DNA of 45,765 bases, counting the filler, from Jimgerdemannia flammicorona (taxonomy: Eukaryota): assembly GCA_003990765.1 (NCBI GenBank). It is 2 parts of 2 records of this genome, joined end to end, with 100 filler letters (N's around TTAATTAATTAA, not from the genome) between each part and the next. Parts side by side here need not be neighbours in the genome. Positions count along the whole stretch, not along the records: positions 1 to 22,835 come from RBNJ01001196.1; 1 more part is not named here. One strand, given 5' to 3'. A model generated the notes under the pieces. That model was not told the DNA's origin. It searched no databases and saw only the letters and a program-made list of their open reading frames with translations. The translations under genes and the position numbers were made by a program. Positions 2,865 through 26,000 of the stretch are shown here, in pieces (position 1 is the stretch's first letter; every line of letters starts with the position of its first letter).

Positions 2865-3143
2865 GTGTGAGGTTTAACAAGAAATTCAACAGAGTTGAGT
2901 AATAGCTGTGTTAGATTATGGAAATTCGAACATCTCTTGTCAGACTTACTATTGCTTATATATCTTTTACTTATCTGCTTCAGACTTAGTAAATAGTTAT
3001 ATAATGTTAACATAATATAATACAAAGAAATTTCATACATAAAAGTGATTACTTCTCAGGTTTCAAAATCAGATAGCTTTGATCTACTGACCAAATTATA
3101 TAATAAAAAAATAATAATTTATATCACAAGAGTTAGAGTTAGA

Positions 3144-4952
3144 CTTCAAGTAAGGATTTTATTCATTGTAGAGAAGAAGGGATATATCAGACTAATAAAT
3201 AATAAAGACTTTTAAGATGATAAGAGCAAAAAGAGGCCAGTAAAGTAAACAACTAGCTAAGAAGAGCAAAACTAAGACCAGAGAGGTGACAACTCTATAG
3301 ATAGGCTGGGTATATCATTTTGTTATAGCCATAAAGATAACAAGTACAAAAGCAAAGAGAGAGGCTAAATAAAATAGATATAAGCCTGATGTCAATTATA
3401 GGAATAATATCAACAATCAATACCAATCAGCTAATATAAGATATATAATATAATGCACTCTCAATAATTAGAAAACTAATTAAGATGAGTTATAGGAGGG
3501 AAGAAAATAAAGAAAATATACTTTTACTCAATTGTATAAATATTTTTATAATTTCAGTTAGACAAAATCTGGCTATAAGGTAGTAACCAAAATTGTATAT
3601 AGTATTGATAGTATAGAAGGTGGACTCATGAAGAGTGTGAAGAGGAAAGATAAGAACCTCCTTCTGTTATTCATTACTGGTGAACCAATAGAGTTACTCA
3701 TGACTAGAATTACTTTAGAAGACCAGATTAGAGCTATCAAGAATACCACACCTATAAAAATAGTCACAGTAAAACCAATCTCTATAGAGATAGATGTGGG
3801 GTTGGCCAAAATGATTATAATGTCAGGTAAGTGCAGAATACATAAGCTGAGAAAAAAAGAAGAGGACTAAGTTGGCTTACTGAGACTACAAGTAGCCTCA
3901 GAGTATTATATACCAAACTAGCAATTAGAAGAAGAAGACCCATTCTTACAATAACTGGTCACAAAGAAAGGACTAAAGGAAGGAGTGAAGCTAGTAAGTC
4001 ATGTGGACCTGAGACAAAGATCTCAGTATTAGTCAAAGTAGTCAAGCCAGGAGGTCCAATGCTAGAATTTATCAATAATAGAACCTGAAAGATACATGAC
4101 AAAGTACTCACTAAGATAGCTAATGGAGTTATTGCCCAACTTACTACATTAGTCCAGATGGGCTTAGAATATATAGCAGAGATCAGATATTTAATAAAGA
4201 AAGAAAGAGAGGTCAAGAATTACACTATCAACTATGAGTCTGCCAGAAAATCTGATAGCCTAGACTACAGTCTTATCAAGAATGCCTTGGAGTACTTTAA
4301 TACCTAAAGCTCTGTAGTAGTAGCTAGATAGGAGGTATAAAGAAAGGAGAGGCCATATTCTCACTGAGGTCTGACAAAAGTATATATGATGGTCAGCTTA
4401 GCCATTTGTGACTAGAGAAGACCACAGACTTAGTAAAAGTTAAGAGTATATTCCATTTTAGCTATATTCTATAATGCCAGATTAATAAAGTCAAACTCTT
4501 TATTAGTATATAGTATGCTCAGATATATATAGGAGGTGGATTACAGATAGGGGATATCTCTAATCAGTATAGAACAGTCAGCTAGACTAATATAACTATA
4601 CTTCTTGAGGTTGAGCTCTATATCATTTATCTTAAACCAATCTTCACAGAAGTTGACTATATATTCTCTACCCCTCAGTAGTAGTATGAGGGGTAAGATA
4701 ATATCATTTATAAAGAAAAGACTGAGTGGAAAGTTGTACTCCTTAAGCATTTAGCAAACTAGTCAGCAAGGGGGTTAATAAAGATATTAAAAAGTCAAGA
4801 AGAGAAGAGGAAGTAGGAATCAGAGGGGTGATGAGACCATTAATAACTATCTGATAGGAATAGTAGTTGAATATACTTTACACAATACTAAGGAGAACTG
4901 TATCAGTATTCCATACCTCAAGCTGGAAAAAAATGAGCTTAAGAGAGACTCA
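3144..4952 (-). mobile_element. Telomere-repeat-associated APE/RT LINE, copy A (3' UTR plus ORF2 C-terminal part, decayed)
   Basis: 3144-3530 matches 9709-10090 and 21561-21888; 3530-4950 matches ~4990-6425. Preceded by AGAGTTAGAGTTAGA (3129-3143), a G>A-decayed AGGGTTAGGGTTAGG. Confidence 0.85.
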
Positions 4953-4991
4953 ATGGAAAGAAAGGAATAAAGAAAATGTGCAATTGCTCAA

Positions 4992-7900
4992 TTATCCAAG
5001 CATCTTTGTAATCTTGGTCAGACAGAACCTGACTGTGAGGTGGCTACCAGAATTATACATAGCATCAATAGTATAGTAGGCTGTCTTGTGAAGAGCATGA
5101 AGAGAGTAGATATGAAGTTCCTCCTGCTATTTATTATTGGTAAACCAATTGAGCTATTCATGATGGGAATTATCTTAGAACATAGAGTACAAACTGTTGA
5201 GAAGACTGCACTCATAGAGATGGCTATGTTAAAACTTATCTCCACAAGGGCTAGGGCATAGTTAGGCAAAGTAGCCATAATGCCAGGCAAGAACAGAGTG
5301 CACAAGCCAGGGGGGGAAGGAGAGGACATGGTCAGCTCCCCAAGACCATAAACAGCCTTTGGGGGTAATATACCAAATGAGAGCCTGAGAGGAGGAGACC
5401 CATTCTTGGAGCAGCTGATCCCAGATGAATGACTAGAGGAAGGAGCAGAGTGAGTGAGTCTTATGGACCTAGAGACAGAGGTCTCAGTATCAGTTGAGAA
5501 AGTCAAGCCAAGAGGTCTAATGCTGGAACTTGTCAATGATAGAACTCAGGGGATATATGATAAAGTACTTGCTAAGAGGGTCAATGAGATTGTTACCAGA
5601 CTTACTACACCAATCCTGATGAACTTGAAATATACAGCAGAGGTCCAATATATGATGAAGGAAGAAGGAGAGGCCAAGAATCAAGCTGCCAAGCAGAGGG
5701 TGGCCAGAAAACCTGACCACTCAAGTGATAGCATTATTGAAGACCTACTTGGAATACTTTAACATCTGAAGTTCCATAATAGTAGCTGGGCAAGAAGCTT
5801 ATAGAAGTAGAAGACCATACTCCAGCTAAGACCTAATAAAGATATATATGATGGTCAGCTTGACCTTTAGTGACCAGAGGGGACCATGGGTATGGCAGAA
5901 CCCAAGAGTACATTCTGCCTTCACCATATTCTGCAATGCCAGCCTGACAAAGTCAAATTATTTGTTAATATATGAGATGCCCAGATATATATAGGAGAGG
6001 GGTCATGGGCAGGGCTTGCCCTCAATCAGCACAGTATAGTCAGCAGGGCCAACATAACTATACTTCTTGGGATTGAGCTTAGTATTATTTGCTGAGAGCC
6101 AAAGCTCACAGAAGTTAACCATTCTCTGCCCTTCTACAGTAGTGCAGGGTGTGAGGGCAATATCATCAGCAAAGAAAAGCCCAAGAGAGAAGTTGTACTC
6201 CTTAAACTGCTCATTAGCAAGAGGGTTAATAAATATGTCAAAGAGCTAAGGGGAGAGAAGAGAGCCCTAAAAGAGGCCATGCTCAGTTGAAACTAAAGGG
6301 GTGATAAGGTTGTTAACAACTACCTAATAGAAACAGTGATTGAACAGGCTTCAGATGATGCTAAGGAGGGCCACATTGGCTTCTTGCTCCTCAAGTCAGG
6401 AAAGAATGAACTTGAGGGAGACTCTATCATATGCCTGCCAGAGGTTGAGGAAGATATAGCAGTCCCACCCCTTGGCCTACATCTCATGTGAGGGCAAGAC
6501 ATAGGAAAGAGATGAGAAGTGGGTTTGGAAGTCACCTTGGCAGTATGACATTTCTATCAGGCCACTCTGGCTCTTGACATAACTTTTCAAATACTGCTTA
6601 AAGAGTCTGTGAAACTCTCAGTAAGAGTGATAGAGTGAAATCTATCAATTATCTGGAACTTCTCCTTCTTAGGGATTGGGGAGATGATGGGTGAGTTCCC
6701 AAACCATGTATATCTAGAAGAAGAAGGAAAGGGCTTTTGATAGACTACAGAGAGCATCCTTCTCACCCCAATATCTGAAGGATCTGGACATGTAAAGAGT
6801 TAGCCCCACAGGTCTTCATAAGGGGGTAGCTATGTATGACCCTCCAAATCGCAGTTTGGTCAAACCAAGACTGTAGTCCAAGGGCCCCCACACTGAGGGA
6901 GAAGATATTCTCAGAGTTATCAAGATGTAGGGAGATATCTAACTGGCTGAAGATAGTAGTAAAGTGGGCAACTATATTATCAAATACCAAGACAACAGGA
7001 GAGCAGAATTAGAGAAAAGCCAGGAGGGTAGAGGAGTATGTACACTTGAAACCATGAATGGTATCAGAGACCAATAATGCACTGCAAAGGAGGTCCTACC
7101 ACAGGAGTAGTACTGCCCTGATCTCTCTGATATCATATGAGTCCAGAATATTCTCATAGATGGACTGCAGAATAGAGATCAAGAGAGTACAAACTGCTGG
7201 TGATCTTCCACAGAGCAAAAGCCAGTGATGTGGTCCTGGATAGAATAAATAGACCTGACAACAGTATTGCAAATGATATCTGCTAATTCCCAAAGATGAG
7301 CTTAGATGACTAGATCAATCAGATACTTCACAGCATAATGGTAGACACTAGCCAAGACAGCAACCAGCAAGAGGAAGAAGAGAAAGGAGACAGTAAGAAG
7401 GGAGGGATAATTAGTAGTAACAAGAGGTTTGGAGCAGATGAGAGATGTATAGAGGGATGCAGTGACAAATTTGTGATCTATGTATATAGATCCAGCAACC
7501 AGGATCAGGTGATTCAATATCCACATCAATAAGGAGATATCAATGACATCCATCCAATCTCTAGAACCAGAGTTGATATTACTAAGTCAGAAACTGAAGT
7601 GCATATTAATGTCATCAATCAAAAGGGCCTTACCCAGGAAGTGGCCAGATATAAGATCATGGAAGCCATTAATAGAAAGAGAGGTGGGGTATAAATTCTG
7701 ACCAAAGCCAGGCCCTAGAACATAAGCCAGATATAGAAGGGGTTGTTGGAGGATCTGGAAATGAGTGTAGCAAAATTGTTTGACATAAGGACCACAAGAT
7801 CACCATTCTGGTGGCTTATGATCCTATGTGATGCCAGGGGGGAAGATATGTAAATGAGTGGAGCAAAATGGTTTGACATCAGGACCATAAGACCACCATT

Positions 7901-8071
7901 CTGGTGGTCTATAATCCTATGTGATGCCAGGAGGGAAGATATGTAAATGAGTAGAGAGAGATGCCATGTTTCACAAATGAAAAGAATATTGAGGGGAGGA
8001 CCAATCAACCAACTGAGCATATAAAACTTGTCCTGAGTTAGTCTATGTACATTGGAGAACCTGACTCTTAT
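4992..8071 (-). pseudogene. LINE ORF2: apurinic-like endonuclease + reverse transcriptase + C-terminal Cys/His motif
   Basis: Start xRVRFSNVHRLTQDKF...ILFICETWH (APE), IYIDHKF, QAYDRV, GSLLSP, FFADDIAL (~6155-6178), YLGI, and C-terminal LAWHYGYFA*LCPSPCGDKF*HSHLYEC. Many transition-derived stops. Confidence 0.9.
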
Positions 8072-9180
8072 TGGGGATCAGGTACATTAGTGCCAATAGT
8101 GTGAGAAGTATCTGAGGAAGAAGCCTCAGCTTCCAAAACTATTGCCATATCTCTGATCATTGCCACAGTATCACCTATCTTCAAAGCAGGGCTGGCCATT
8201 GGGGGGGCAAGAGAGAGAAGGGTGAGGCTGAGTTCTATACCCCACACCTTGTAGAAGATTTGCATCTTAGGCCTCTTTATAGTGGTATTACCAGCCAATT
8301 GCCAGATCCAGGCATAAAAGGATTTGAGGACCTGTGCCTTCATGACCTCCAAGGTATTCTTGTTATAGGGGAGTACAGAGTCCCAGACTGAGAGTACTGA
8401 GAACCTGAGCACTTTCATCTTCTTTTAGAATACTGTAACATAATCAGGGTATAGGAGAAATTCAATAGTCAATGTTAAGACATATGATATGTTGAGAACC
8501 TTGAACAACATCATATGGATATTGTACAAGTTCTTTCAGATCTGTCTGATATTAAGATGGGTGAATCTGTCAACATAAACATACTTTAGCTGAGTACCTC
8601 ACTCAGTTAGTGAAAGATGAGAGGTCAGCTTATAGGTCATGTATAAAAGAGCAGTAGTGGTAAAAGCCCTTTCCATCTTAGGGTAGGCCAGGGTTCTATC
8701 CTTGATAGAAACCTTTTTGATGGTAGGGGCATATGATTTGAGGGGGGCAGGGGTTGAAGCAGAGAACAAGGACAGACTGGCAATATTTGGTCCCACAGAT
8801 GTAACCTGGGGCACTAGCCTGGGGGCCTTGGTCTTACCCTTTTTAGGGGGCATGGCTTTGGTAGCCAGAGTGGTGGCTCTAGCAGTCTGCTTGTCTACTC
8901 ACTTCTGGGCCTTAGATTATATATTCAGTAGGAGGTGGGGCCAACAACTTAGGGGGGGTGGATGTGGATGGAGCAGCAGGGGTACTCCCAAAGGAGCACC
9001 AGATAATATGGGAGTGGTGGATGCTGATTGTGCAGTAAGCTGTACCATCAGCTGGATATTGATCTTAGCCAGATCAGTCATCTGAGTCAGTAGATCTGAG
9101 ATCTGCTTTCTCATCATAGCCATCTCCATGACCAGATTGGAGTCAGTTGAGGGATCTGCATGACTGATAGTCAGGGTCAT
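8068..9180 (-). pseudogene. LINE ORF1 (fragmented)
   Basis: ORF pieces 8917-9180, 8599-8853 and 8068-8418 linked by KYVYVDRF...KVLNISYV...EFLLYPDY, a pattern resembling ORF1 of fungal LINEs. The true start may lie further upstream. Confidence 0.75.
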
Positions 9181-10686
9181 TCCCTAACTAGTATTTGGGT
9201 GACTACACTTGTTATGATTGAGGGATAGGGGTATAGAAGAGAAGAGAGAGGACTGGAAATCATGGTCTGAATTGGAAGAGATCATGATCTCTTCATTATT
9301 CTCCACATCATACAGGGAAGATAAATATACTGATATCAGTCATATATCCCCATATGACCTGCACATTATCATAAGACTACCCTCACCAAAGTCAAGAGAG
9401 AGAAGATCAATACTATGAAATTTAGTACAGCAGAGAGAGGTGCCAAAGCATACAAAGAGATGGGTTGTATTCAAGTCATTGCCAATGACAGAAGAGGTCG
9501 CTGATATTACCAAAACAGGCAGAGGTATATTTGTTTGTTTTCTGGAAACCTTTGTTTGGCAAATGAAAAAATAATAGAGAAGAGGGGTATTTATACCCAA
9601 TGAGAGGCTTAGCTAATAAAAGTAACTGCTTTCTTAATTTGAAATAGCTTTGGACTATAAAGCTGAGTCTAGCCAAATGGAAATATCAAATGAGTGGCTT
9701 AGGTTAGGCTTCAAGTGAGAATTTATTCATTGTAGAGAAGATAAGATACATCAGAGCAATAAATGGCAAAGACTTCAAAAGCAGAAAGAGACTAGCAAAG
9801 TAAACAACTAGCTAAGAAGAACTAAACAAAGGCCAGAGAGGTGAACACTCTATGGACAGACTGGATAAACCATTTAGTCATGGCTATAGAGATAATAAAT
9901 GCAAAAAGTAAAAAAGGAAGAGCTAAAAATATAATATACAAATGCCTGGTACCAACTATGGAAACAATATCAACACCTAAATGTGAAGTGACTGATATGA
10001 GATATATAACTCAATGTACTCTCAATAACAAGGGAACTAACCAAGATGAATGAAGGGAAAGAAGGAGGTAATGAAAATGTGTGATCACTTGATCACCCAA
10101 GTATCTTTGTAATCTCAGTAAGGCAAAACTCAACCATGAGGTGGACATAAGAATTATACATTGTATTAATAATGTGGTAGACTGTCTTGTGAAGAGCATG
10201 AAGAGGGTAGGCAAAGAGCTCCTCCTGCCATTCATCACTGATAAACCAATAAAGCTGATTATTATGATCAGAATTACCTCAGAAGGCAGAATATGAGCCA
10301 TCAAGAAGACTGCATCTGAGGAGATGGCCATGATGAAACTTATCTCTACAGGGTAGGGGCAGAGTTGGCCAAAGTAGCAATAGCACCAAGTGAGGGCAAA
10401 ACACACAAGCTAGGTAGAGAAGGAGAGGATATGGTTGGAACCCCTAGACCATAAATAGGACTGTTAAATGGTTTGAAATCAAAAGATTCAAACCAATTTG
10501 AACCACTTCAGTTTGGTTTGATTTGGTCAGCAGTTTCAAAATAATGTGTATCTTTATTTCTTATTTGCATAAGAATAAATCATATAAATACTTCTTGTAT
10601 GAGTTTATATTTTCAGATTCGGCTACTTGACTTGAAACAGTAAAAGAACTCAGTCTCTTTCAGCAAAAAGAATGATCTACAAAGTG

Positions 10687-11057
10687 TCTGCCATTTGATC
10701 TGAATGTTTAAAATTTAATTACTTTATGAAACTACAACTAGTTTTAATGACCTTGATCTTGTTTGAAAGCTATAAATATTGGATTTTAGACACATTTTAT
10801 TCTGATGAAATCAGATGTTTTTTCATAGAGCTATTGCACTTTAAAAAAACTTGGGTCAATTGCCATTTGAAGAGTTAATCCATGATTGATCTGAGTTTTT
10901 TAAAGTGCAATGGCTCAATGAATACAGATCCAATTTCATCGAAATAAAATATGCCTGGAAGCCAATATTCTTAGCTTCCAAACATGATCAAAATTATTAA
11001 CATTGAATATGGATTCATGAAGTTATTAAATTTTAAAAGCTCAGGTCAAAAGGTAGA
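10687..11057. repeat. Long imperfect palindrome (foldback/MITE-like), ~170-bp arms and 24-nt loop
   Basis: For example ATTGCACTTTAAAAAAACTTGGGTCAAT (ends 10860) pairs with ATTGATCTGAGTTTTTTAAAGTGCAAT (starts 10885). Pairing extends outward to TTTGATCTGA / TCAGGTCAAA. Confidence 0.85.
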
Positions 11058-11257
11058 TGATACTACTCATAACTGAGATAAGTCATGCAATAATGATGGC
11101 ACCCAAAATGAAGACAGCTATTCAATGCCTGAAACCAATACATCCAAAACCAATATGCCTAAGATCTAAGTATCTAAGACATTCCTGTATTCATTGACCT
11201 ATGGTCTCTCATGAGCTGCTAATTTATATCTTTTACAAAAAACACTTATATATCAAA

Positions 11258-11690
11258 ATGAGCACCTCCCAAAGCAGCATTTATCACCACTTTACAAAAC
11301 TGGCCAATGGCTCAAGGCAGTGCAACTATTGTCCTAAAGAGAAGATTTATCAAGCCAGTAGTGCTACATCTATCTTATAGACTCAAATCAAGAAATATTA
11401 TCCTGAAAAGATGACCAAGGAAGGGGAAACTGAATTATCTCTTACCCAACAAGAGTATGAGACTATTACAAGTAGTTATATTATATGAATAGTCAAAGAT
11501 CTTCAACTATTCTCAACTTCTAATAATGAAGACTTAAAAGTCTTTATAAAGTACCTGAATCTAAGATATTATATTCCTTACTGTCAAACTACTCATAAAC
11601 TAGTGATGGAGAAATTCAAATCTTACAAAGAGCATATTCAAAATACTCTATACTATATAGTAGGAGCTATATCTTTGACATGTGATCTCT
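11258..11690 (+). pseudogene. hAT transposase N-terminus (BED zinc finger to first catalytic Asp)
   Basis: MSTSQSSIYHHFTKLANGSRQCNYCPK...SSATSIL*TQIKK...*IVKDLQLFS...LNLRYYIP...GAISLTCDL. A likely C-terminal remnant TVLSLRS*DR... lies at ~15775-15890. Confidence 0.85.
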
Positions 11691-13235
11691 GCATCTTTCT
11701 CCACTATCACTCATGTAACACAAACTTCGAAATACACTTTTGACCTGTTTATTAGAGAAAGATACTAAGGTTATGGCAACCAACAAGTAAGCAGACACAC
11801 ATACTAGATTGGGTGAACTGGGGGCCTTCAACTGGTCATATGTCAGATAAGGGTATGGGCTTGGGATGGGGTCATTCAGTGGTCCAAGTAGATAGGGCAG
11901 CTCAGGTAGTAGAAGTGGCACTGGTGGAGGGGCTGGAGGGCAGAAGAGGAGAAGCTTTACAGATATGCTGAAGGCTGGAGATTGGCTGGTTGGAGCTCAT
12001 AGTGGTCAGATAGGTGGAAAGAGGAAGCAGAAAGAAGAAGAAGTTGGAGATGCTGGATCTCAGCAGGTGGGAGAGAGGGCTAGTAGAGTAGCTGCTAGGG
12101 ATAGAGGTGGGACTACTGATAGTGATATGATAGAAAATCAGGAAAAAAATCCAGATGTGACAATTGATAGTGTGGCTGAGCAGATTGGCTCAAAGAGGAT
12201 GGGAGACCTAGCCAATAGTATTATGGGGCTGGCAGTGGCACTGTTACTCAAGAAGTCAATCTCAGAGTTTATGACAATCTTATACTTCTGGGGCTTTGCT
12301 GTAATGGCAAGAATGGTTCTGGGGATTATCTCAGAGCAGGTGGCTGGGGCAGTCTTGGTGAAATTTCTGAAGTAACTAGAGAGAGTTGAAGTGGGTTTTC
12401 AGGAGGTGGGCCTACTGGAGGAAGCATTGAAATCTGGAGTTGCTGTTGGCAAGGTAGTTGTCCCTATGGTACAGTGTTTGAGATGGGACTCCAGAGTGAT
12501 TTAGTTACTAGGCCTACAGTGACAAAGGTTGAGACTAGGAGGAGTGTGATGGTAGAGTATGACAATATGGTTAATATCAGTTTCCAGCTGTAGAAGGGGA
12601 CTGCTTTCAGGACAGGAGACATGGACATCAGGATTAGAATGGCTGAGAGTGAGGCCATGGGGAAAATGAGTGACTGGCCTTCAGTGATGATGTGGGGGGC
12701 TTTTATCTATAAGGTATCATGGGTAAAAGGGAGTGACAAGGAGGAGGAGAACTTGTTGGAGGCTCTGGAGGAGATGAGTGGAGCAGTAGAGTGAAGGGTA
12801 AAGACCTGGAAGTTATATGTTAAGTTGATGCACTTGGAGATTATAGATAGAAAACATATTCATACTGATAAGAGGTAGTGAGAGAGAGCTCAGAGGCACA
12901 AGAAGCAGAAGGAGCTGCTGGCAAGCATAGTAGAAGGGGCAAAGATGAATTCTAGGAGTACTGAGAAGTCTGGGGGTATAGAGGTGAGTGTCTGGGCTAG
13001 TAAGAGAGGAGGAGGAGATGCAGAGAAGGACCTAGTTGGGGCCAGAAAGATAATGCACAAAATATATTTACTGATAGTATGTTCAAAGTCTGGGAGCTAG
13101 TCTTAGAAGACACTCCTCCTCTGGTTAATATGGTTCTACTATAAGGAGTTAGGCAGCTGAGGATGAGCTGATGTGGGGTACTCAGTAGGTATACTTTGGA
13201 GTTCCGGATATGAGAAAAGGAGGACAGATGGTGGT
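11691..13235 (+). mobile_element. L1/Tx1-like LINE, 5' UTR and ORF1 part (3'-truncated)
   Basis: ORF 11965-12375 (LLLKKSISEF...VAGAVLVKFLK) is homologous to ORF1 at 33835-34350, 43689-44402 and 27877-28560. Confidence 0.85.
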
Positions 13236-13239
13236 CCCC

Positions 13240-13558
13240 TTCTATATCTGGAAACCAATATCAACCACATTACTGTACTCTCCCATCACCTCCTCAACCC
13301 TCCTCCTCATCTCAACTGCTATCACCATATGCACTCTCTTTACTATTAACTGAACCACTCTGGAGTTCTACCTCAGACAGTACACCCTAGAGACAACTAC
13401 TTTCCCAATAGTCACTCCAGTCTTCAGAGCCTCTTCCAGTGAACCTGCCTCCTCAAAGCCCATCTCCACCCCCTCCAGACCCTTCTGGAACTTTACTGAG
13501 ATGGCCCCTACCACTTACTTTGAGATAATCTCCAATACCATCCTCACTGCCACCACTA
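13240..13558 (-). mobile_element. Inverted L1/Tx1-like ORF1 fragment
   Basis: Minus-strand translation VRMVLEIISK*VVGAISVKFQKGLEGVEMGFEEAGSLEEALKTGV. Confidence 0.8.
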
Positions 13559-15770
13559 TATATATATATCTAAGTTAAGGCACTGTTTCAAAACCAAAAA
13601 GCTGATCACTCTCTCCTTTTGAAAAGCTGAATTAAAGGAATATATATATATATATCTTAGTTAAGGCAACATTTCAAACCCTCCTCCTTTTGAAAAGCTG
13701 GAATAAGCAGTGAGATGAGACAAATGGACACTCTCTCTCTCCTTTCAAAAAGCTGGATAAAAAGAAAAAGTATATAATTATATATCTTAGTTAAGGCACC
13801 ATTTCAAACCCTCTCTCTAGCAGTATACTCTTCCCTTTGGAAAAGCTGGATAAAAGGAATATATATATCTTTTTTTTTTTTTTTTTTTTAATGGACTCAA
13901 TATCCTGCAGATTTTTATTGAAAGGGAACCTAGACTGTATAGACCAAAACCCTCCCCCACCACCCACCAAGCACTGCCCCCCCATTAATCTAGACTAGCT
14001 ATTGTCCAGCAGCTTGACCATGCCAGGTACAGTAGGGCCAAAGGAGGCCCACACCTTATTCTACACACCATGCTCTCCCTACTACCAGGGGAAACCCAGC
14101 CATACACCAATGACTGAAAGCACATTTCCAAGAACCCAACATATGTATAAGGCCATGCCTGAGCTGAATAGAATAGCCCCTGCCACCCCAAAGAGAATGA
14201 CAGGCAGAAGAAAAACTCTCATCAAAGCACAACACGGTGGGTAGGGCCTGGTTCTCCCAGTCAAGGTGAGTAAAGGACTTACATGTGAGGTGGGAGGAGA
14301 CCCCCAATGCCCCACTACTCAAGCCTTGGACCTCAATCATGTTGCCATATCAGCTCCCAGTTCCAGTTGAGTATAGCCAAGATGTCTGAAATGAGTAGTC
14401 TCAGACCCCCCAACCCCCCCTGATGACTGGGGCCTAACCTGCCTGACTGCCAAAAGAAGCCTAGAGTGACACCTACTACCTAACTGCACCACACCAATCA
14501 AAAGGCCCCACCGAAGCAGCACCTGCCCCAGCTGTAACAGCTGCCCCCAGCCTGGCACCCTACTAGTCCACCATTATCGCCCTTCCTCCTATCTGTGACA
14601 GTCATCTCTCCTCCCATCCCAACAACATCTGAAAAGCAGTCACCTATATCAGAACTGTACATGCCAGGAAGCTCACCAAAGCCAGAGGGCTCTACCACAG
14701 ACACCGAGGATCTGCAGATAACCTATACTGAGCACTTGATGCCCAAGGTTGGCTGACTCCCTATGTAGCCTGAGATATACTGAGACAGTACCTTGTTGGT
14801 GATGACAAAAGGAAGAAGGCACCACACCAAAACGGATGCACTCCAGATGCAGCTGAAGATTTCAGAAACTGCAAAAAAGTGGAGAAGACACTGATCTGAC
14901 ACTGATAAAGTGGCAACTCATCACCATTGCCCTCCTCCTACTATGCCCATGCAGGCACAGCAAACCAACCCAAGGTAGAGGGGGTAATAATAGAGGAAAG
15001 GAAACTCAGAAGGTTGTCTACCAAATCTTGTAACCGGTAAGATAGTGGAGAAAGGAGCTAAAGGAATATAACTTAGTTAAGGTGCTATTTTCTCTCCTTT
15101 TTAAAAAGCTGACATGAGCAGTATACTCTCCCCTTTTGAAAGCTGGATAAAAGAAATATATATAAATATACCTTAGTTAAGGCACCATTTTGAATCCTTC
15201 TCCTTTAGAAAAGCTAGAATAAGTAGCAAAATGAGACAAGTATACACCCTCTCCCTCTTTGAAAAGCTGGATAAAAAAAGAAAGTATATAATTATATATC
15301 TTAGTTAAGATGCCATTTCAAACCCTCACCCTTTTGAAAAGCTGAATGAGCAGTATACCCTCTCCTTTCGAAAAGCTAGATAAAGGAATATATATACTTT
15401 AATTAAGGTGTCATTCGAAACCTCTCTCATTCAAAAAGCTGAAATGAGCAGCACACACTCTTATTTTGAAAAGCTGAATAAAGGAATATATATACCTAAG
15501 TTAAGGTACCATTTTGAACCCTTCCTCTTTTGAAATGCTGAAATGAGTAGTACACACTCTCATTTCAAAAAGCTGGATAAATGGAATATATATATATCTT
15601 AGTTAAGGCACTATTTTGAACCCTCCCCACCTTCCTCTTTTGGAAAGCTGGATAAAAAGAATATATATATACCTTGGTTAAGGTATTATTTGAAACCCCT
15701 CTCACCTTTCAAGTAGTGAGATGAGACAAGCATATACTCTCCTCCTCTCTCTTTTTTGAGTATATAATTA
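13559..15770. repeat. Tandem satellite (~110-130 bp unit of two related halves), interrupted at 13870-15058
   Basis: Recurrent AAAGGAATATATATATCTTAGTTAAGGCACCATTTCAAACCCTCTCCTTTTGAAAAGCTG, about ten copies of the TTAGTTAAGG core. Confidence 0.9.
13870..15058 (-). mobile_element. Non-autonomous 1.2-kb poly(A) retroposon with L1/Tx1-like ends
   Basis: T20 at 13870-13889. Sense 5' end GCTCCTTTCTCCACTATC...ACAAGA...TAGACAAC resembles the LINE 5' ends at 11691 and 43197. TAAAGGAATATA is duplicated on both flanks. No RT motifs seen. Confidence 0.7.
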
Positions 15771-18700
15771 TATGACAGTTTTAAGCCTCAGATCATAAGA
15801 TAGACTTTGCAAGCTTCCAACTTTACAAATTGCTTATATTCTTAGTGAAATCAATCACAAGGCTAATAAAATAATTTTTGAAGTCAGATAGCAATAAACT
15901 ACTTGGTTGAACTGATTTGATATATGAACTGATAATCTGAATCGATTTACACTGATTTGAACTATTTAAAAGCCCTAATCTTAAATAGTCTTTGAGAGTA
16001 ATATACCAAATGAGAGTCTGGAAGAAAGAGGCCCCTTTCTAGAGCAGCTGATCCTGGAGAAATGACTAGAAGAAGGAGCGAAGTAAGTGAGTCTTGCAGA
16101 CCTGGGAATGAAGGTCCCAGTACTAGTTCAATGCCAGAACTTGTCAATGATAGAACTCAGGGGGTATGTGACAAAACACTAACTAAGAGAGCTGATAGAG
16201 TTGTTGCCAGACTTGCTACACTAATTCAGATTGGCTTGGAACATATAGCAGAGGTCCAACATATGATAGAGGAAGGAAGAGAGACTAAGAATTGAACTAC
16301 CAAGCAAGGGATGGCTGGAAAATTCAACTGTCTAGATGATAGTTTTATCAAAGACCTACTCAGGGTACTTTAACACCTGAAGACCCATAGTGATTATAAG
16401 GCAGAAATCTCATAGAGTAGAAGACTGTACTCTAGCTGAGACCTAATGAAGGTATGTATGATGGCCAGCTTGACTACTGGTGACCAGAGGGGACCATGGA
16501 CATAGCAGAACCCAAGAGTTTGTTCTGTCTTTGCTGCATTCTTCAATACAAGGTTAACAAAGTCAAACTCTTTGTTAGTATACAATATGCCCAGATATAT
16601 ATAGCAGAGGAGTTGCAGACAGGGCTCACCTCTAATCTGTACAGTACAGTCAGCAGGGCCAACATAACTGTACTTCTTGGAGTTGAGTTCCATACCATTC
16701 ACTAAGAGCCAATTCTTACAAAAGTCAATCTTCCTCTGCTCTTCTGTAGTAGTACAGGGGGTGAGAGCAATATTATCAGTAAAGAAAAGCTTAAAGAGAA
16801 AGTCATACTCCTTAAACTGCTCATCTAAAGAGATGATAAGATGGTTAATAAATATATCAAAGAGCCAAGGAGAGAGGAGGGAGCCCTGAAAGAGGCTGCA
16901 CTTAGTAGAGAACAAAGGAGTGATGAGGCTATTAACAATCACCAGATAGGAACAGTAATTGAACAGACTTCAGATAATGCTAAGGAGGGCTGTATTGGCT
17001 CTTTGCTCCTCAAGTCAAGAAAGAATGAGCTTGAGAGAGACTCTATCATATACCTGCCAGAGGTTAAGAAAGATATAGCAGTCCCACTCCTTGGATCATA
17101 TCTTGTACAAGAGCAAGATATGGGAAAGGGATGAGAAGTGGATTTGGAAGCTGCCTTGGTAGTATAACATTTCTGTCAGGCCACTCCAGCTCTTGACATA
17201 ACCTTCCAAACACTATTCAAAGAGTATGTGAAACATCTCAGGAAGAGTGATAGGGCAAAATCCATCAATTATTCAGAACTCCTCCTTCTTGGAGATTGGG
17301 GAGATGATAGCAGAATTCTAGCAGTAGAGGGTGAGCCTCCAAACCATACATATCTGGAAGAAGAAGGAAAGGACTTTCAATAGGCTATAAGGAGCATCCA
17401 TCATCTAAAGGATCTGGACATATAAGGAGTCAGCCCCACAGACCTTTATGAGGGGATAGCTATGGATGGCCCTCTAAACTGTAGATTGGTCAAACCAAAA
17501 CTGCAGTCGAAGGGCCCCCATGTCAAGGGAGAAGATGCCCTCAGAGTCATCAAGATATAGGAAGGCATCTGACTGACTGAAGATTGTAGTAAAGTAGGCA
17601 ACCACATCATTAAACACTAAGACAGCAGGGGAATAAGATTAGAGGAGAGCTGGGAAAATGGAGCAGTATGTATGCTTGAAACTATAAATGGCATCAGAGA
17701 CCAATGATGTACTGCAAAGGAGGTCCTGCTATGGGAGCAGTACTGCCCTGATCTCTCTGACATCATATGAGCCCAGAATGTCCTCACAGATAGACTGCAA
17801 CTGGAGGTCATGAGGGAGTCAAGGGAATTCACAAACTACTGGTAATCCTCTATAGAGTGAAAGCCAGTGATGTGGTCTTAGATAGAATAAATGGACCTGA
17901 CAATGATATTATAAATAATATCCACTGATTTCTAAAGGTAAGTTTGGATGATCAGATCAGTAAGGTACTTAACAGAATAATAACAGATATCAGCCAATAT
18001 AGTAATCAGTAAAAGAGAGAAGGGAAAGAAGATGAGAGATGATCAGTAATAATGGAAGGGATGGAGTAGGTGAGAGATGCATGGAGAGATTTGGTGGTAA
18101 ATATATGATCAATGTATATGGATCCAGCCACCAGGGTCAGGTGGTTCAATGACCATGTCATCAAGGAGGTATTGGTGACATTTATCTGATCTCTAGAACT
18201 AGAGTTCACCAAGTTGAGCATTGAAGTACATATTGATGTCACTGATGAAAAAGACCTTATCCGAGAATGGGTCAGATATAAGATCACAGAAGCCAGCAAT
18301 GGAAAAAGAGGAGAGAGCATAAACCCTGACCAAAGTTAGGCCCTGGAATAAGAGCCAGATATAGAAGGGATTGGCAGAGGACCCAGAAATGAGTAAGGTG
18401 AAACAGTTTGATATAAGGACCACAAGACTACTATTTGGTAATCCATGATCTCATGTGATAAAAAAAGAGAAGATATCTGAATTAGTGAAGAGAGATATAG
18501 TAGAATGTGCCATATTTCACAAATGAAAAGACTGTCAAGAGCAAGTTCAATCAACTGACTGAGCATATCAAACTTGTCCTGAGTTAGTCTGTGTATATTG
18601 ATGAATCTGAATCTCATTAGAAACTAGACACTTTAGCACCAACAGTGTGAGAAGCACTTGAAGAGGAAGCCTCAGCTTTCATCTCTCTGATTATAACAAT

Positions 18701-19433
18701 AGTACCACCTGCCTTCAAAGTAGGGCCAGCCATCAGGGGGACAAGAGAGAGGAGGGTAAGGCTGAGTTCTGCAGCCCATATCTTGTAGAAGTTTTGTACT
18801 ACAGACCTCTTCACAGTGGTATTGCCAGCAAACTGCCAGACCTAGGCATGGAAGAATTGGAGAACCTGTATCTTCACAGTCTCCAGGGCATTCTTATTGC
18901 AGAAGAATGCAGGGTCCCAGGCCTAGAGTACTAAGAACCTAAGCACTTTTATCTTCTTTTGGAACACTGTTATATAATTATAGTGCCAAAGAAATTTGAT
19001 GGCTGATGTCAAGATGAACAACATATTGAGAACCTTCAAGTTCTTCTAGATCAGCCCAAGGTTAAGATGGGTGAATCCATCAATATAAACAAAATACAGC
19101 CATGTACCTCTCTTAGTTGGTAATAAATGAGTGATCAGCTTGCAGATCATATATAAAAGGATAGCAGCAGTGATAGCCCTTTCTGTCTCAGGGTAGGCCT
19201 GGGTTTTATTCTTGATAGAGACCTTCTTGGTGACAGTGGCATATAATTTGGGAGATGTGGAGATCAAGCAGGGGATAAAGATGAACTGGTAACACTGGGT
19301 CCCACAGATGTAACCTAGTGTACTGGTTTAGGGGCCTTGGCCTTACCCATTTTAGGGAGTGTGGCTTTGGTGGCCAGAGGTACTGCCATAGAAGTTACCT
19401 TCTTTAGCAGTATACCAGACTGTAATATAGTGG

Positions 19434-20631
19434 TCTCAGTTCTTTCACTCAGACCAAATGCATCTAAGCTACTAGGATAGTGAGCATCTCAAGTTTTGGA
19501 GGCTATAAGCATAGACTCAAAGGAGTGCTGACAGATATATCTCATCTCTTAGATATAGGAGTTCCACCAGGTTATTTTGGCATAACCATAGCTTTTAGTT
19601 TCAGCAAGTTACAAGGATTTCAAGAATTTTGAACAAGATAGGCAAGATAGGTAATATGGGCAAAATGGGCAAAATAGGCAAATAGGCAAGATGGGTAATA
19701 TGGGCAATACCGACAATATGAGTAATATGGACAAAATGAGCAACATGAGCAACATGGACAAGGTAGGCAAGATGGCAAGATGGTAAGATAGGCAAGGCAA
19801 GACAGTAAGATAGCAAGATAGGTAGGATAATAAGATATATAAGATAGGCAAGATGGCAAGATGGCAAGATGGGCAAAATGGCAAGATAGCAAGACAGCAA
19901 GATGGGCAAGATGACAAGATGGGCAAGACAGGCAAGACAGCAAGATGGGCAATATAGATAAGATGGGCAAAACAGGTAAAACAGAATGGGCAAGATAGGT
20001 AATATGAGCAATATGGGCATTATGAGCAATACTGGTAAAATGGCAAGATAGCAAAACAGACAAGATGGGCAAGATAGCAAGACAGTAAGATGGCTAGATA
20101 GGTAAGAAGATAGGCAAGATGGGTAAGATAGCAAGACTGATAATATAGGCAAGACAGGCAAAATAGGCAAAATGGATAAGATTGGCAATATGGACAATAT
20201 GGATAACAAAGACAACATTGACAAGACTGATAAAATGACAAGATGGCAAGTTGGCAAGATAGGCAAGATGGGAAGATGGGTAAGACAGAGAAGATAGACA
20301 AGATGAATGAGATGGGTAAGATAGACAAGATAGCAAGACAGACAAGATGGGCAAGATGGGGAGGTACTAATAGGGATAGGCCAGATATATTAAATACTGA
20401 GTATTTGAGGAGATTGGGGTTCATAACTCATATCTACTATTTGATAAGGTAGGTCAGATAGAAGGATTTAGTTACTCAGATAGTGAGATTGCAACTCTTA
20501 CTCTAAAGATACTAAGATTATTATTGGTTTGGAGAGCAAATGAGTATAGGGGTACCAGTATAGTATGAGGATACTATAAATATTATAGATAGTTAATAAA
20601 TTTGGCTTTAGTCAATAGAAAAAAAAAAAAA
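19434..20631 (+). mobile_element. Non-autonomous 1.2-kb poly(A) retroposon with internal microsatellite
   Basis: Perfect 12-bp TSD GTAATATAGTGG (19422-19433 and 20632-20643), AATAAA at ~20595 and A13 tail at 20619-20631. Confidence 0.85.
19634..20360 (+). repeat. Degenerate 8-9 nt microsatellite (GGCAAGAT / GGGCAAGAT / GGCAATATG)n
   Basis: Directly visible tandem units. These explain the low-complexity ILP/CHLA ORFs on the minus strand. Confidence 0.95.
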
Positions 20632-21505
20632 GTAATATAGTGGCTTTAGCAGTATACTTATCTGCTTACTTCTGGGCCTTAAACTATATATTCATGGCAG
20701 GGCCAGTAGGAGGAGAGGCTAAGGACTTGAGGGGAGCAGATGTGGATAGGGCAGTGGAGATACTTCTCAAAGGAGCACCAGATGACATGTAGGCAGTGGG
20801 CACCAATTGTACAGCAAGCTGCACTATTAGCTGAGAATTAATCTTAGCCAAATCAACTACTTGAGTCAGTAGATCCAAGATCTGCTTCCTCATTATGACC
20901 ATCTCTGTAACCAGATCAGAGTCAGCTGAGGGATCTGTATAACTAGCAGTCAGAGTTATTCCCAAACTGGTGTTTGAGTAACTATGCTTATTCTGATTGA
21001 GGGATATGGGTATGGGAGAATAGGGAGAGTGCTAGGTATTATAGTATGAATCAGAAGAGATTGTGATCTCTTTATTATCTTCAGCATTATGTAGAGAAGA
21101 TAAATATACTAATATCATTCATTCATCTCTGTATGATCTACTCATCACCATAAGGCTACTCTCACTGAAGCTAAGAAAGAGAAGACTGATACCATAATAT
21201 TCAGTATAATGAAGAGAGGTGCCAAAGTATACAAAGAGATAGGTGGTATTTAAGTCATTACTGATGATGGAGGAGATGACCAATATTGCCAAATTAGATA
21301 GAAGTTGGTTTGTTTATATATTGAAAATTGTGAAATATAGGTTATATAACCTTTGTCTCTTTATTTGTACAATAAAAAAATAATGGAGAGGGGGTATTTA
21401 TACCTGAAGAGAGGCTTAGCTAATCAAATTAACTGCTTTCTTAATTTGGAAAAGCTTTGGGCCAAAAAGCCAAGTCTATCCAAATAGGGAAATCTTATGA
21501 GTAGC

Positions 21506-21560
21506 TTAGGGTTAGGGAGTAGGCTTCAAGTGAGAATTTATTTACAGAGTTAAAATTAGG
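21506..21560 (+). repeat. Two telomere-like tracts enclosing a ~22-bp stub of the LINE 3' end
   Basis: TTAGGGTTAGGGAGTAGG | CTTCAAGTGAGAATTTATTTAC | AGAGTTAAAATTAGG | CTTTAAGTAAGAATTTATTC. Confidence 0.8.
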
Positions 21561-21888
21561 CTTTAAGTAAGAATTTATTCATTATAGATAAGATAAGATA
21601 TATTAGAGCAACAAATAGCAAAGACTCTAAAGATGAGAAAAGTAAAAAGAGGCTAGCAAAGTAAACAACTAGTTAAGGAAAACAAATAAAGGCCAGAGAG
21701 GTGACCACCTTAGGATGGGCTGGATAAACCATTTTATAATAGCTGTAAAAATAATAAATATGAAAAGTAAAAAGAAGAGAAACTAAGATAAAATACACAA
21801 ATATCTGGCACCAACTATAGGAACAGTATCAATACCTGAATACCAAACAACTGATATGAGATATATAACTCAATATACTCTCAATAAT
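21561..21888 (-). mobile_element. Telomere-repeat-associated LINE, 3' UTR-only copy
   Basis: Matches 9709-10028 and 3144-3468. Confidence 0.85.
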
Positions 21889-22835: not shown

Positions 22836-22935
22836 NNNNNNNNNNNNNNNNNNNNNNNNNNNNNNNNNNNNNNNNNNNNTTAATTAATTAANNNNNNNNN
22901 NNNNNNNNNNNNNNNNNNNNNNNNNNNNNNNNNNN
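22836..22935. other. Synthetic contig linker / assembly gap
   Basis: 44 N + TTAATTAATTAA (stops in all six frames, 22880-22891) + 44 N = exactly 100 nt. Confidence 0.97.
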
Positions 22936-23067: not shown

Positions 23068-26000
23068 TCAACCCACCCCTTCTTTCCACCTCACCCCCTT
23101 CTCACCAAGTACAAGGTGTTCCTGACTTCTCTGAACAATGTCTAACACCTTCTTCATGGTCCCCAACTGGTGCCTCTTCCCCTGATACCACCACCCTTGC
23201 ACCACTTCCAAGAGTAATCCCTTCCACTACTCCACCAATTCTCCAATACCCATCCAGGGATCCCTCTCAAATACCCACCGCCAGTGCACTGCCATCAGTA
23301 CCCAGATGCCGATAATCTGACCCAGGCCTCCCCAGATGTCCCCAATTTCTCCCACCAGGCGACGCTTGATTACTCGACAAGTGGGGCCCCCTGCCCACTC
23401 ACTCTCCTCCCCCCAATAACCCTCCAATGTCTGCCAAAATCCTTCAACCCCTGGACAGGCTGCCAGAATATGCTCTGGCATCTGCACTACTCCCCCATCC
23501 AGCTCACAACACCACTCACATTCCCTTATACCATCTTCCACCATCCACCCTGTCCTGTACCCCAGCATGATGTTCCTCTGCAGAAATCGCTACTATACCA
23601 TCCAGAACTTGGGCGGGGCAATCTTGAGTAGAGAGATCCCCCAGCCCCAAACCCGACCCCACTCCCATTCTTCACCAAACCCAGCCTTCTGCCAACCAAC
23701 CAGCCACCTCTCAAGCAGACCCGTTCGGATCCACTCCATTGCCCCTGACAAAGAGTATTCCACCAACGAGCGGCCGCTAATACGGATCACACCAAGTTGC
23801 CACCATTGTCGATCTGGGTCCTCCTCTTCTTCGCCAGGTTCTGGGCCCATGAGACCCATCGCCAGCCAAGCTTCTACAATACTCCACCAAAATCCCCTAT
23901 AATGCAACCTGCTAACCCTTCCAACCTGGAGCAAACCTCGCATGTCCTTCCAAACCTCGCTCCGGGAGCAGAACCAAACTTCCCAGTTGTCCATAGCCAG
24001 TTTGCTCCAGCCCTCCCCTCCTAATTCTGCCATCCGACAACCCCACCAGCCTCGGAGCACCTTTAGCCGCCTTCTGAAGTCCACCAACCCCAGACTACCA
24101 TCTGCCCTCACCATCACCATAATTTTCCAGCTAATCTGTGATCTCCTTCCCTGCCACAGCCATCCTTCGACCACCTTCTTCAGCTTTTGAACCACTCATC
24201 CTGGAAAGTCCAGGTGGTACCCCAAGTACTACAGCTTCAGTAACCAATATACATTCAAAACTACAATCCTCCCAACCAAGGAGAAGCCCCTCCCAGATCA
24301 GCCCACCAAGGCATTCTCCCACTTCTGTATCATTCCACACCACCACTCTTTTGGCAGCACCATCCCATAAACTGAGAACCAGATGCCCAGATATCGAACT
24401 GCTTCCCCAGGTCTAACCAATTGTCCAAAATGTCCATGCTCCCCCAACCCAGCTCCAAGCTCCATAGTCTTGCACTTGCCCCAGTTCAGCTTTGCTCCAG
24501 CCAGCATCTCATACTGTCCTACCCCTTCCTGTAAGCTCACCACATCTTCCACACTGCCTAACCCTACTACCATATCATCTGCAAAAGCCCCCATCTTCCA
24601 GACCACATCCCCCATTTTCAATCCGGTAAGTCTCCCCTTCAACCACACCAACAAGGGCTCCAAAGATAAAATGTAAAGCAGGGGTGAGAGAGGATCTCCC
24701 TGTGGCACACCTCGCCCTAAGCGGAACTTCGGGCTACTCCACCCATTCATCAACACTGCAGCCCTGCAACCTCGCACCAGACCCATCAGCTTTCGAGCCT
24801 CCTCCAGATCAAATCCGACCTTCCGTAGATCTGCCTCCAAGTAGTTCCACCACACCATATTGTAAGCCTTCTCCTGATCCAAAAACACCATCCTTCCATC
24901 TACTTGCCAGCTTCGACAACCTTCCAAAACATTTTGCACCCATGCTGTGCTGTCTCTAATCTGCCTCCCCTTCACAAACCCTCGCTGTTCATCACCCACC
25001 ATTCGGCCAATCCATTGTTGCATTCTCCCTGCCAGAATCTTGGAGACCAACTTCCTATCCACATTCAGTAACATGATGGGCCTCCAATTTCGCCACACAC
25101 GTCTGTCCCCTTTCTCCTTATAAAGCAGAGAGACTAGCCCTAAGGAGCTATTGCCAATCCAGCAGCCTTTCCCCAGTGTAAAGTTCGCCATTTCCACAAG
25201 CCATTCCCCAAGCTCAGTTTGAAACTCCTTCCAGAACTCCCAAGGCAGTCCATCCTCCCCTGGCAATGAACCAGTCTGCGCTTTCCTCAGAACCTCTAAC
25301 ACTTCTTCAAGGGACACCCTACCCATGACTGCCCCACCAATTGCTGGCTCTGCCACCACTGGCCAGCTGCTGACCAAATTGTTATTGTCCTCCAGTGCTG
25401 CCTCTCCCTCTGCCAGCCCTCCATCATCCTGCCATAGGGTGCGCCATCGACCAGAAACCTCCCCTAGCATGTCTGTGATATCGGTCACCTCAGTGCCATC
25501 CTCCTGCAATACAGAGGCCCAGCTGTACCTCACCCTTCTGGCCTTCAAGATGCCAGACAAGTATTTGGTGGGTCGCTCTCCTTCTTCCAACCGCTTGGCT
25601 CGCAGTCTTGCCAGCAACCCATCCACCACCCTATCCTCTGCAGCCTTCAAATCTGACCGCAACTCTGCTACCTCCTTAATCAACAGGGAGCACCATTCCC
25701 CTGAGGTGTTCTCTCCCTCTAAAAGTCTCAACCGCCAGCACAGCCCCTGCTCTACTCTCCTCTCTCTATCCTTCTGCTCCCTTCCCGCTACCTCTCCTAC
25801 ATCACGCCAATATGTACCTGCCAGATGTTTAAATTTCCCCCACCACTGTACTATTGACTGGCCACTATTCTTCTACCATGCCACTTCCTGTCTTGCAATT
25901 TCCACAAACTGATCCCGCTCCACCTGTCTCTTGAGTAGTGCCACATTAAGTTGCCATCTGCCTCCACCACCACTGGCTGCCTGGAACCTCCAACACACCT

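Follow-up and report, generated by a model that had tools for sequence, protein, structure and literature searches.

Why should every 3' end of a LINE (long interspersed nuclear element) in a fungal genome adjoin a short run of telomere-like sequence? The question is raised by a stretch of DNA from Jimgerdemannia flammicorona (assembly GCA_003990765.1; 45,765 nucleotides including filler, hereafter the window), in which an earlier note, made from the sequence alone, had described a polarized head-to-tail array of an APE-type (apurinic/apyrimidinic endonuclease-type) LINE joined by TTAGGG-like tracts. Telomere-tied retrotransposons are central to ideas on the relations among telomerase, Penelope-like elements and LINEs, and on chromosome-end repair. 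We found that the copies in the array are old and dead and belong to an APE-type LINE, and that three features are real and extend to the whole clade of the element: the type of LINE, the polarity and the tie to the telomere repeat.

A head-to-tail array joined by telomere-like tracts

The window is made up of two contigs joined artificially by a linker (N44-TTAATTAATTAA-N44) at 22836-22935, so features to the left and right of the linker need not be genomic neighbours. The LINE array lies in the left contig only (the RBNJ01001196.1 part), which ends at the N linker, in AT-rich DNA, 947 bp past the last copy. We took the boundaries of the copies from self-blastn of the window and read the tracts and joints from the sequence. 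The features are as follows; profile A5 is the family profile and L004 is a relative, both of which are taken up below.

3129-3143, minus strand: tract T1, AGAGTTAGAGTTAGA on the plus strand, after the A1 3' end and with unrelated AT-rich DNA on its left (TRF period 6, 2.5 copies)
3144-~4954, minus strand: copy A1, the 3'-terminal ~1.8 kb of the LINE, 5'-truncated (self-blastn)
3158-3163, minus strand: AATAAA signal of A1 (TTTATT on the plus strand), read from the sequence
4337-4738, minus strand: reverse transcriptase remnant of A1, matching positions 609-743 of profile A5
~4952-9698, minus strand: copy A2, with a full-length 5' end at 9698 and the last ~345 bp of the 3' end missing
4995-6614, minus strand: remnant of the A2 reverse transcriptase and C-terminal part (profile A5, 218 bits)
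7832-8071, minus strand: decayed APE start of A2 (profile A5)
8110-8598, minus strand: remnant of open reading frame 1 (ORF1) of A2, matching ORF1 of L004 (E 1.4e-15)
9699-9708, minus strand: tract T2, TTAGGTTAGG on the plus strand, between the A2 5' end and the B 3' end
9709-10458, minus strand: 3'-terminal 750 bp of copy B, with AATAAA at 9722-9727, 13 nt from the joint
10459-15981, no strand assigned: foreign insert of 5.5 kb splitting copy B, outside the LINE and a gap in the self-alignment
15982-21505, minus strand: remainder of copy B, with a full-length 5' end at 21505
16421-17800, minus strand: reverse transcriptase remnant of B (profile A5, 251 bits)
18504-18614, minus strand: decayed APE start of B (profile A5)
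19380-20639, minus strand: extra 1.26 kb of B, absent from copy A and containing a (CAAGATAGG)n expansion at 19634-20357
21506-21523, minus strand: tract T3, TTAGGGTTAGGGAGTAGG on the plus strand, the sole perfect two-unit TTAGGG run in the window
21524-21545, minus strand: fragment C, the last 22 nt of the LINE including AATAAA, an extreme 5' truncation
21546-21560, minus strand: tract T4, AGAGTTAAAATTAGG on the plus strand
21561-21888, minus strand: copy D, the 3'-terminal ~330 bp; homology ends at 21888, followed by unrelated AT-rich DNA

A 24-nt motif from the 3' end of the LINE occurs on the plus strand at positions 9709, 21524 and 21561 with 0-3 mismatches, where no occurrence is expected by chance, and a fourth, more decayed 3' end (repeat family D18) begins at 3144. 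All four 3' ends adjoin a TTAGG(G)-like tract of 10-18 bp, and on the plus strand the register of the joint is constant (...TTAG(G/A)|CTT(C/T)AAG), as the earlier note had described. AATAAA lies 13-14 nt before the joint in every case. The claim that the element has no poly(A) tail also held, as none of the four joints in the window carries an A-run. Both of the full-length 5' ends likewise adjoin a tract, as had been claimed, because a self-alignment of 8873-9720 with 20640-21535 crosses both 5'-end/tract/3'-end joints, with the same starting base. No tract is present at the A1/A2 joint. Copy D was identified from the alignment of 3116-3468 with 21535-21888 in the self-blastn. Coding matches to the LINE are all on the minus strand and every copy has one orientation, which confirms the uniform direction reported in the note.

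The copies are 68-78% identical and riddled with stop codons. Because they share the tract within a repeated unit at this level of identity, the four joints in the window do not by themselves represent four independent events; independent support comes instead from the tails of relatives. Across the window, telomere-like 12-mers show no overall enrichment (10 compared with 5.8 expected, one of them perfect), and what is non-random about them is their position. The note had further concluded that the contig is a current or fossil subtelomere. This was not established: there is no long TTAGGG array in the window or at the left contig end, that end is AT-rich, and other repeats of the window occur in both orientations around and inside the array.

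The array also contains several further features. The (CAAGATAGG)n expansion, which makes up most of the extra 1.26 kb in the 5' part of copy B, has a 9-bp unit repeated ~84 times and lies upstream of the stretch that aligns with the ORF1 remnant of copy A. A 93-bp tandem duplication (7748-7956, 2.2 copies, 88% match) lies inside the decayed endonuclease region of A2. The foreign insert has AAATAG at both edges, which may be a target-site duplication; it also holds 98-bp and 75-bp tandem repeats at 15293-15708, and parts of it recur in inverted orientation in the other contig, at 33276-34578.

An APE-type LINE and its relatives

Pfam RVT_1 was recognized in 2 of 14 open fragments of the window, the best with an E of 1.2e-8, above the cut-off. 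A search of a protein collection with a 191-aa reverse transcriptase fragment led to three long relatives (P0001-P0003), which match both copies on the minus strand, and the family profile A5 scored 251 bits on copy B and 218 bits on copy A. Only decayed APE starts remain of the endonuclease in the window (8071-7832 and 18614-18504 with profile A5). ORF1 of four relatives (L004, L002, L001 and L007) matches window positions 8598-8110. The LINE repeats in the window are whole-copy matches, with no long terminal repeats among them.

The relatives retain the N-terminal domain that the window copies have largely lost. A profile built from 17 of these domains matched the LINE-1 endonuclease (E 1.4e-4) in an alignment that includes the N, E, D-N and D-H motifs; the E, D-N, D-H and D-H columns are invariant among the relatives, and one protein, P0010, scored above the Pfam cut-off for Exo_endo_phos. 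An AlphaFold model of the domain (pLDDT 78.3, pTM 0.78) had the LINE-1 endonuclease as its top Foldseek match (E 4e-11), followed by APE1, with the TRAS1 endonuclease at an E of 1.2e-7. The domain is predicted from this model to fold like the LINE-1 endonuclease. In nine ORF2 proteins, Pfam detected only RVT_1, with or without Exo_endo_phos, and no restriction-like domain; no RHD/KPD block was seen when P0001-P0003 were read by eye. A C..C..H..C motif is kept at the C-terminus of ORF2, and no RNase H domain was detected in the family with Pfam. The ORF1, ORF0 and small 3' ORFs of the relatives gave no convincing Pfam family. The Protein Atlas supports only a LINE with Exo_endo_phos neighbours. 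The window element is an APE-type, two-ORF LINE, and the note was correct in calling it APE-type.

The relatives comprise 37 metagenome loci, of which ~33 are distinct (L010 is the same as L009, L035 lies within L036, and L019, L020 and L023 overlap). In many of these loci ORF2 is intact, at 1000-1160 aa, and is preceded by one or two ORFs, and profile searches yielded further members, two of which have NCBI names (Smittium culicis and Calcarisporiella thermophila). We placed the family by a quick maximum-likelihood analysis of 63 reverse transcriptase regions; the resulting tree is unrooted and was built without curated clade references (including R1, TRAS, SART and Tx1). Both window copies nest within a family clade of 29 rows (SH-aLRT 96); a subclade that includes L001, L004 and the S. 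culicis and C. thermophila proteins has a support of 98. The family clade is separate, in this unrooted tree, from RNase H-bearing rows and from a zf-RVT-bearing L1-like clade (99), whose rows include one protein named 'TX1' by NCBI. The layout of the family (APE, reverse transcriptase and a C-terminal Cys/His motif, with no RNase H detected) would fit the L1 group (L1/Tx1), and its reverse transcriptase forms a separate clade (96) next to the zf-RVT L1-like clade, again in an unrooted tree without curated references.

The identity of ORF2 among clade members is 26-40%. The clade to which the LINE belongs is deep and is found in early-diverging fungi. The description of the element as fungal in type is probably right, given the two named members and a second LINE in the window that has relatives in Mucorales.

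One subclade (L013, L016, L018, L029 and L032) has three ORFs, with an extra upstream ORF of 555-940 aa that has no Pfam match. Its 3' untranslated region (UTR) is 1-1.2 kb long and contains small open frames of 150-190 aa and a conserved CTTCAAT(A/G)TGTA motif.

The telomere-repeat tail and its possible origin

A sense-strand tract resembling (CCCTAA)2-4 follows ORF2 in 15 of the 21 distinct loci whose ORF2 ends inside the contig, at 17-1233 bp past the stop codon (L001, L004, L005, L007, L009, L012, L017, L018, L025, L026, L027, L028, L029, L032 and L036). The six loci with no tract have limited sequence after the stop (L015, 54 bp; L030, 483 bp; L016, 561 bp; L013, 602 bp; L008, 829 bp; L006, 1459 bp), and in close relatives of L013 and L016 the tract lies 1127-1152 bp past the stop, which is further than those two contigs reach. 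The polarity of the tract is strongly biased. Perfect units, (C2-4TAA) repeated at least twice, form 21 C-strand tracts in 14 loci, versus 1 G-strand tract in one locus; when up to one mismatch per 12-mer is allowed, the numbers rise to 27 on the C strand and 4 on the G strand in 243,439 bp (duplicated loci counted). The tracts of the relatives are 9-26 bp long, their register is always ...AA|CC(CC)TAA, and no A-run occurs at 20 joints. As tract-bearing loci are found in all three subclades of the reverse transcriptase tree, the tail is an old trait. The order seen in the window, in which a LINE 3' end is followed by the C-strand repeat with fixed polarity, is therefore conserved across a deep clade, and this argues for a real link to TTAGGG DNA.

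Two subgroups differ in what precedes the tract. In the short-3'-UTR subgroup, to which the window LINE belongs, the joint is preceded at 10-24 nt by AATAAA or ATTAAA (L001, L004 at three joints, L005, L007, L012 and L025). The long-UTR subgroup has a 3' UTR of 0.8-1.2 kb that ends ...TTGAA|CCCCTAACCCTAA. A conserved 3' stem-loop was considered for this subgroup and rejected (RNAalifold on 8 sequences predicted zero pairs); the only common 3' features are the CTTCAAT(A/G)TGTA motif and the terminal ...TTGAA|CCCC.

Sequences near the tails of two relatives are of note. In L029 (11049-11134), a 12-bp repeat, (TTACTTCCACCC)n, comes after the tail, and CCCTAACCCTAACCC lies beyond it at the end of the contig, with the look of a variant telomeric or subtelomeric repeat. 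L001 has two more CTAACCCTAA motifs at 5776-5819, less than 100 bp after its tail, and its contig opens with (GATTA)4 at positions 1-21.

The layout of the window recurs in L004, which comes from another organism. Here an upstream 3' end with CCTAACCCT is followed, ~230 bp later, by a complete two-ORF copy with its tail; a 3' fragment of 31 nt comes next, and then another tail. (A second '5' end' at L004:5518 was rejected and not counted as a copy, as it shares only ~50-95 bp with copy 1.) L029 is a solitary copy with tracts at both ends, one ~160 bp before the first ORF and one at the 3' end. Tracts on both flanks were found only in the window array, L004 and L029.

An array of this kind might arise by tandem duplication or unequal crossing-over of a single unit, made up of the element and its tract, instead of by repeated insertion. 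The two 5'-end/tract/3'-end joints of the window are collinear in the self-alignment and both full-length copies begin at the same base, which speaks for such an origin. We nevertheless regard it as very improbable: the joints differ (10 bp at one, and 18 bp, a 22-bp fragment and 15 bp at the other), the same architecture is present in L004, and the tail found throughout the family would be left unexplained.

We take the anatomy of the array, the family-wide tail with its polarity and the APE fold of the relatives as established, and from them we infer three properties of the element: a tail that lies within the RNA, priming by pairing, and a preference of the nuclease for TTAGGG. Our best reading, to which we give about an even chance, is that an RNA with a telomere-complementary tail primes on DNA that ends in TTAGGG, and that resident tails serve as targets, which generates head-to-tail arrays. 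The element RNA would end in a short tail, approximately (CCCUAA)2-4, with which a DNA 3' end terminating in TTAGGG would pair and so prime reverse transcription. A TTAGGG tract 5' of the cDNA strand must either have belonged to the 3' end that served as primer or have arisen as a copy of the RNA tail. Priming by pairing of the tail would leave no poly(A) to be copied and would keep the register at ...AA|CC(CC)TAA, and the lack of copied poly(A) is in turn an argument that pairing within the tract is how priming begins. In the subgroup to which the window element belongs, the AAUAAA 10-24 nt upstream of the joint would set the length of the tail: by the established spacing between AAUAAA and cleavage at poly(A) sites, the RNA would be cleaved within or just after the tract, which would account for the constant length of 2-4 units.

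The encoded endonuclease most likely nicks TTAGGG-containing DNA; given the conserved APE domain, the simplest model is that such a nick comes first and the CCCUAA tail then pairs with the nicked DNA. The tails of resident copies, at 2-4 units, would then be targets in their own right. New copies would land at old tails and so produce head-to-tail arrays, joints of 10-18 bp and, on occasion, tiny 5'-truncated fragments such as C.

Several observations weigh against this reading. No tract was found in the 1459 bp that follow ORF2 in L006 or in the 483 bp that follow it in L030. Tracts upstream of ORF1 or ORF0 are confined to L002, L004 and L029, with a single unit in L013 and none in the other loci that have 5' sequence. 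In nearly all of the relatives the tract is directly followed by unrelated sequence and not by further telomere repeats. The 13 larger loci contain a single copy each, and the contigs of L027, L028 and L032 break right after two units, as would be expected of a dispersed repeat that carries its own tail. Target-site duplications could not be defined: a search for exact matches of 8-20 nt between the 32 nt after the tail and the sequence upstream of ORF2 gave only hits of a size expected by chance, except in L004, where the match is a second 3' end. Nor could the 5' ends of the relatives be delimited by pairwise alignment, as the 5' regions are too diverged (L026/L027 and L029/L013).

Much of this would follow if the tract were a simple-repeat tail borne by the element, which the reverse transcriptase regenerated as it copied the RNA 3' end reiteratively, in the manner of microsatellite-tailed LINEs, with dispersed insertion that has no preference for telomeric DNA and the array as a local pile-up. 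The uniformly short tracts with unrelated flanks, the single-copy larger loci, the contigs that break after two units, the window without a long telomere array and the many 5' regions without a tract all favour it. The earlier note had itself named such a case (dispersed copies, with CCCTAA only a tail of the element) as the one that would speak against its proposal; the 9-26 bp tracts, the flanks and the single copies of the relatives fit it in part, as regards a tail linked to the element. This explanation has difficulty, however, with the identity of the unit, which is the canonical telomere repeat, and never another microsatellite, in every lineage of a family whose ORF2s are only 26-40% identical. 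Neither does it account for the fixed polarity (27 versus 4), for the recurrence of head-to-tail joints and tiny 3' fragments in two unrelated genomes, or for the tracts on both sides of L029. We consider it rather unlikely on balance.

The polarity of the array is also exactly that predicted for endonuclease-independent addition to chromosome ends, as for HeT-A/TART or Athena. On this explanation, reverse transcription would be primed on the G-overhang of a short or uncapped end, with telomerase adding repeats between rounds, and the left contig would be a fossil subtelomere with its old end to the right; the G strand runs 5' to 3' on the plus strand and the 5' ends of the copies face right. 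Erosion and subsequent healing of an end would fit with the short tracts between copies and with so extreme a truncation as that of fragment C, and subtelomeric elements with the same layout are described in M. graminicola (PMC4522978). End addition is, however, hard to reconcile with a family in which the APE domain is intact and conserved and its catalytic columns are invariant. Moreover, neither the window nor the contig end has a terminal telomere array, repeats of other kinds are found in both orientations, within the array and around it, and the L036 copy has its 3' end toward a contig end 9 kb away that has no telomere repeats. We judge this origin improbable.

A broader version of the model of priming by the RNA tail can be framed, which we offer tentatively and hold to be somewhat doubtful. 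The family would be an ancient and still active APE-LINE clade of early-diverging fungi whose telomere-complementary RNA tail primes on TTAGGG 3' ends. It would bring together two routes, the use of an endonuclease known from ordinary LINEs and the end pairing of telomerase and of Penelope-like elements that have no endonuclease. Such elements could invade telomere-like tracts and also heal short or broken ends, and the window would be the fossil of such an end. Apart from this broader version, a fungal APE-type clade that has a telomere tail like that of Penelope-like elements and lacks poly(A) would mean that the tail-pairing strategy arose, or was kept, in endonuclease-bearing LINEs too, and that some of the short interstitial telomere tracts in fungal assemblies are footprints of elements and not old chromosome ends. 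Because many family copies are intact, target choice and priming are open to experiment.

Known telomere-associated elements and the rest of the window

The Drosophila elements HeT-A, TART and TAHRE, which belong to the jockey clade and have oligo(A) tails, resemble the window array in being arranged head to tail, with 3' ends toward the centromere side of the G strand. We know of no telomerase repeats between these elements in Drosophila. TRAS and SART of Bombyx mori (R1 clade) have poly(A) tails and are located inside long (TTAGG)n arrays. The likeness to these elements lies in an APE-type LINE tied to the host telomere repeat and in a short repeat run being sufficient, as the target requirement of SART1Bm is only three TTAGG units (PMC7265360); the TRAS1 endonuclease is also among the fold matches of our family. 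Unlike TRAS and SART, the family lacks poly(A), has a tract of 2-4 units that is mostly followed by unrelated DNA, and resides in fungal hosts. Target-specific APE-type lineages are reported mainly from the Tx1 and R1 clades (PMC4640811). Another APE-type LINE, Tx1-1_ACar of the anole, is listed in telomeric repeats of a TTAGGG host (PMC10088271), and our family, like it, has no detected RNase H; it is a vertebrate element, whereas the clade of our family stands apart from the zf-RVT L1-like rows (99, in a tree without a curated Tx1 reference). The same source lists SART/TRAS, GilM/GilT, Zepp1, MoTeR1, Tx1-1_ACar and Athena as telomere-associated retroelements (PMC10088271).

The closest layout to that of the window is found in endonuclease-less Penelope-like elements of M. 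graminicola (PMC4522978). Like Athena and Coprina, the 'family 4' Penelope-like elements of this organism have 1-3 reverse-complement telomere units at the 3' end, and truncated and full-length copies occur in tandem in a fixed orientation (PMC4522978). Athena/Coprina Penelope-like elements have no endonuclease and a Penelope-type reverse transcriptase, whereas in our family an APE domain is conserved at the N-terminus, there are two or three ORFs, and the reverse transcriptase is of the LINE type. Among fungi, MoTeR (Magnaporthe), FoTeR (Fusarium) and Cnl1 (Cryptococcus) are non-LTR retrotransposons joined to TAACCC/CCCTAA (PMC12857005). The 3' end of FoTeRs has ~3-8 telomere units and the 5' end 1-2, and FoTeRs and Cnl1 are placed with the CRE group, which has a restriction-like endonuclease (PMC12857005). 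MoTeR, FoTeR and Cnl1 belong to the CRE/SLACS group with a restriction-enzyme-like endonuclease, in contrast to our family, with its N-terminal APE and no restriction-like Pfam domain.

Among the cases that we found in print, the fungal ones are elements with a restriction-like endonuclease (MoTeR, FoTeR and Cnl1) or endonuclease-less Penelope-like elements, and the APE-type cases come from insects and a lizard. We found no description of an APE-type fungal LINE with a CCCTAA tail in the literature searched, a scope that did not include Repbase or subscription journals. The telomere repeat of Mucor is TTAGGG (bioRxiv 10.1101/706580). Grem-LINE1 of Mucor (bioRxiv 10.1101/706580) and the non-canonical telomeres of Microstromatales (PMC13234504) were set aside as different things.

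In the LINE array, the ratio of observed to expected CpG is 0.01-0.09 and TpA/ApT is near 0.9-0.95; over the whole window, observed/expected CpG is 0.09, beside values of 0.01-0.03 in the array, and CpA and TpG are in excess. Low CpG with this TpA/ApT indicates that the array decayed by CpG deamination and not by classical repeat-induced point mutation (CpA to TpA), which we rejected as the decay mode (TpA/ApT 0.84-0.95 and observed/expected CpG 0.01-0.29). The depletion of CpG points to probable heavy CpG methylation and deamination of host repeats. The earlier note had described G>A as the dominant decay; the decay is a loss of CpG, which alone does not explain the G>A changes inside the tracts.

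Two other LINE-like reverse transcriptases lie in the right-hand contig, at 24364-25335 and 30145-31245 (minus strand), and score 80 and 51 bits against the family profile. Kinship between the two was rejected, as they share only a 151-bp match. The reverse transcriptase at 24301-25872 has named relatives in Lichtheimia, Rhizopus and Choanephora (Mucorales) and groups with the zf-RVT L1-like proteins. A T7 run stands at the start of the right-hand contig and may represent a truncated poly(A) tail of the minus strand. Another repeat family, whose members are 78-91% identical, occurs in both contigs, in inverted and direct orientation (1-2619 with 35656-38215, and 2093-2529 with 42727-43196); Pfam gave no match for the open frames tested for it, from 1164-1916 and from the right-hand contig.

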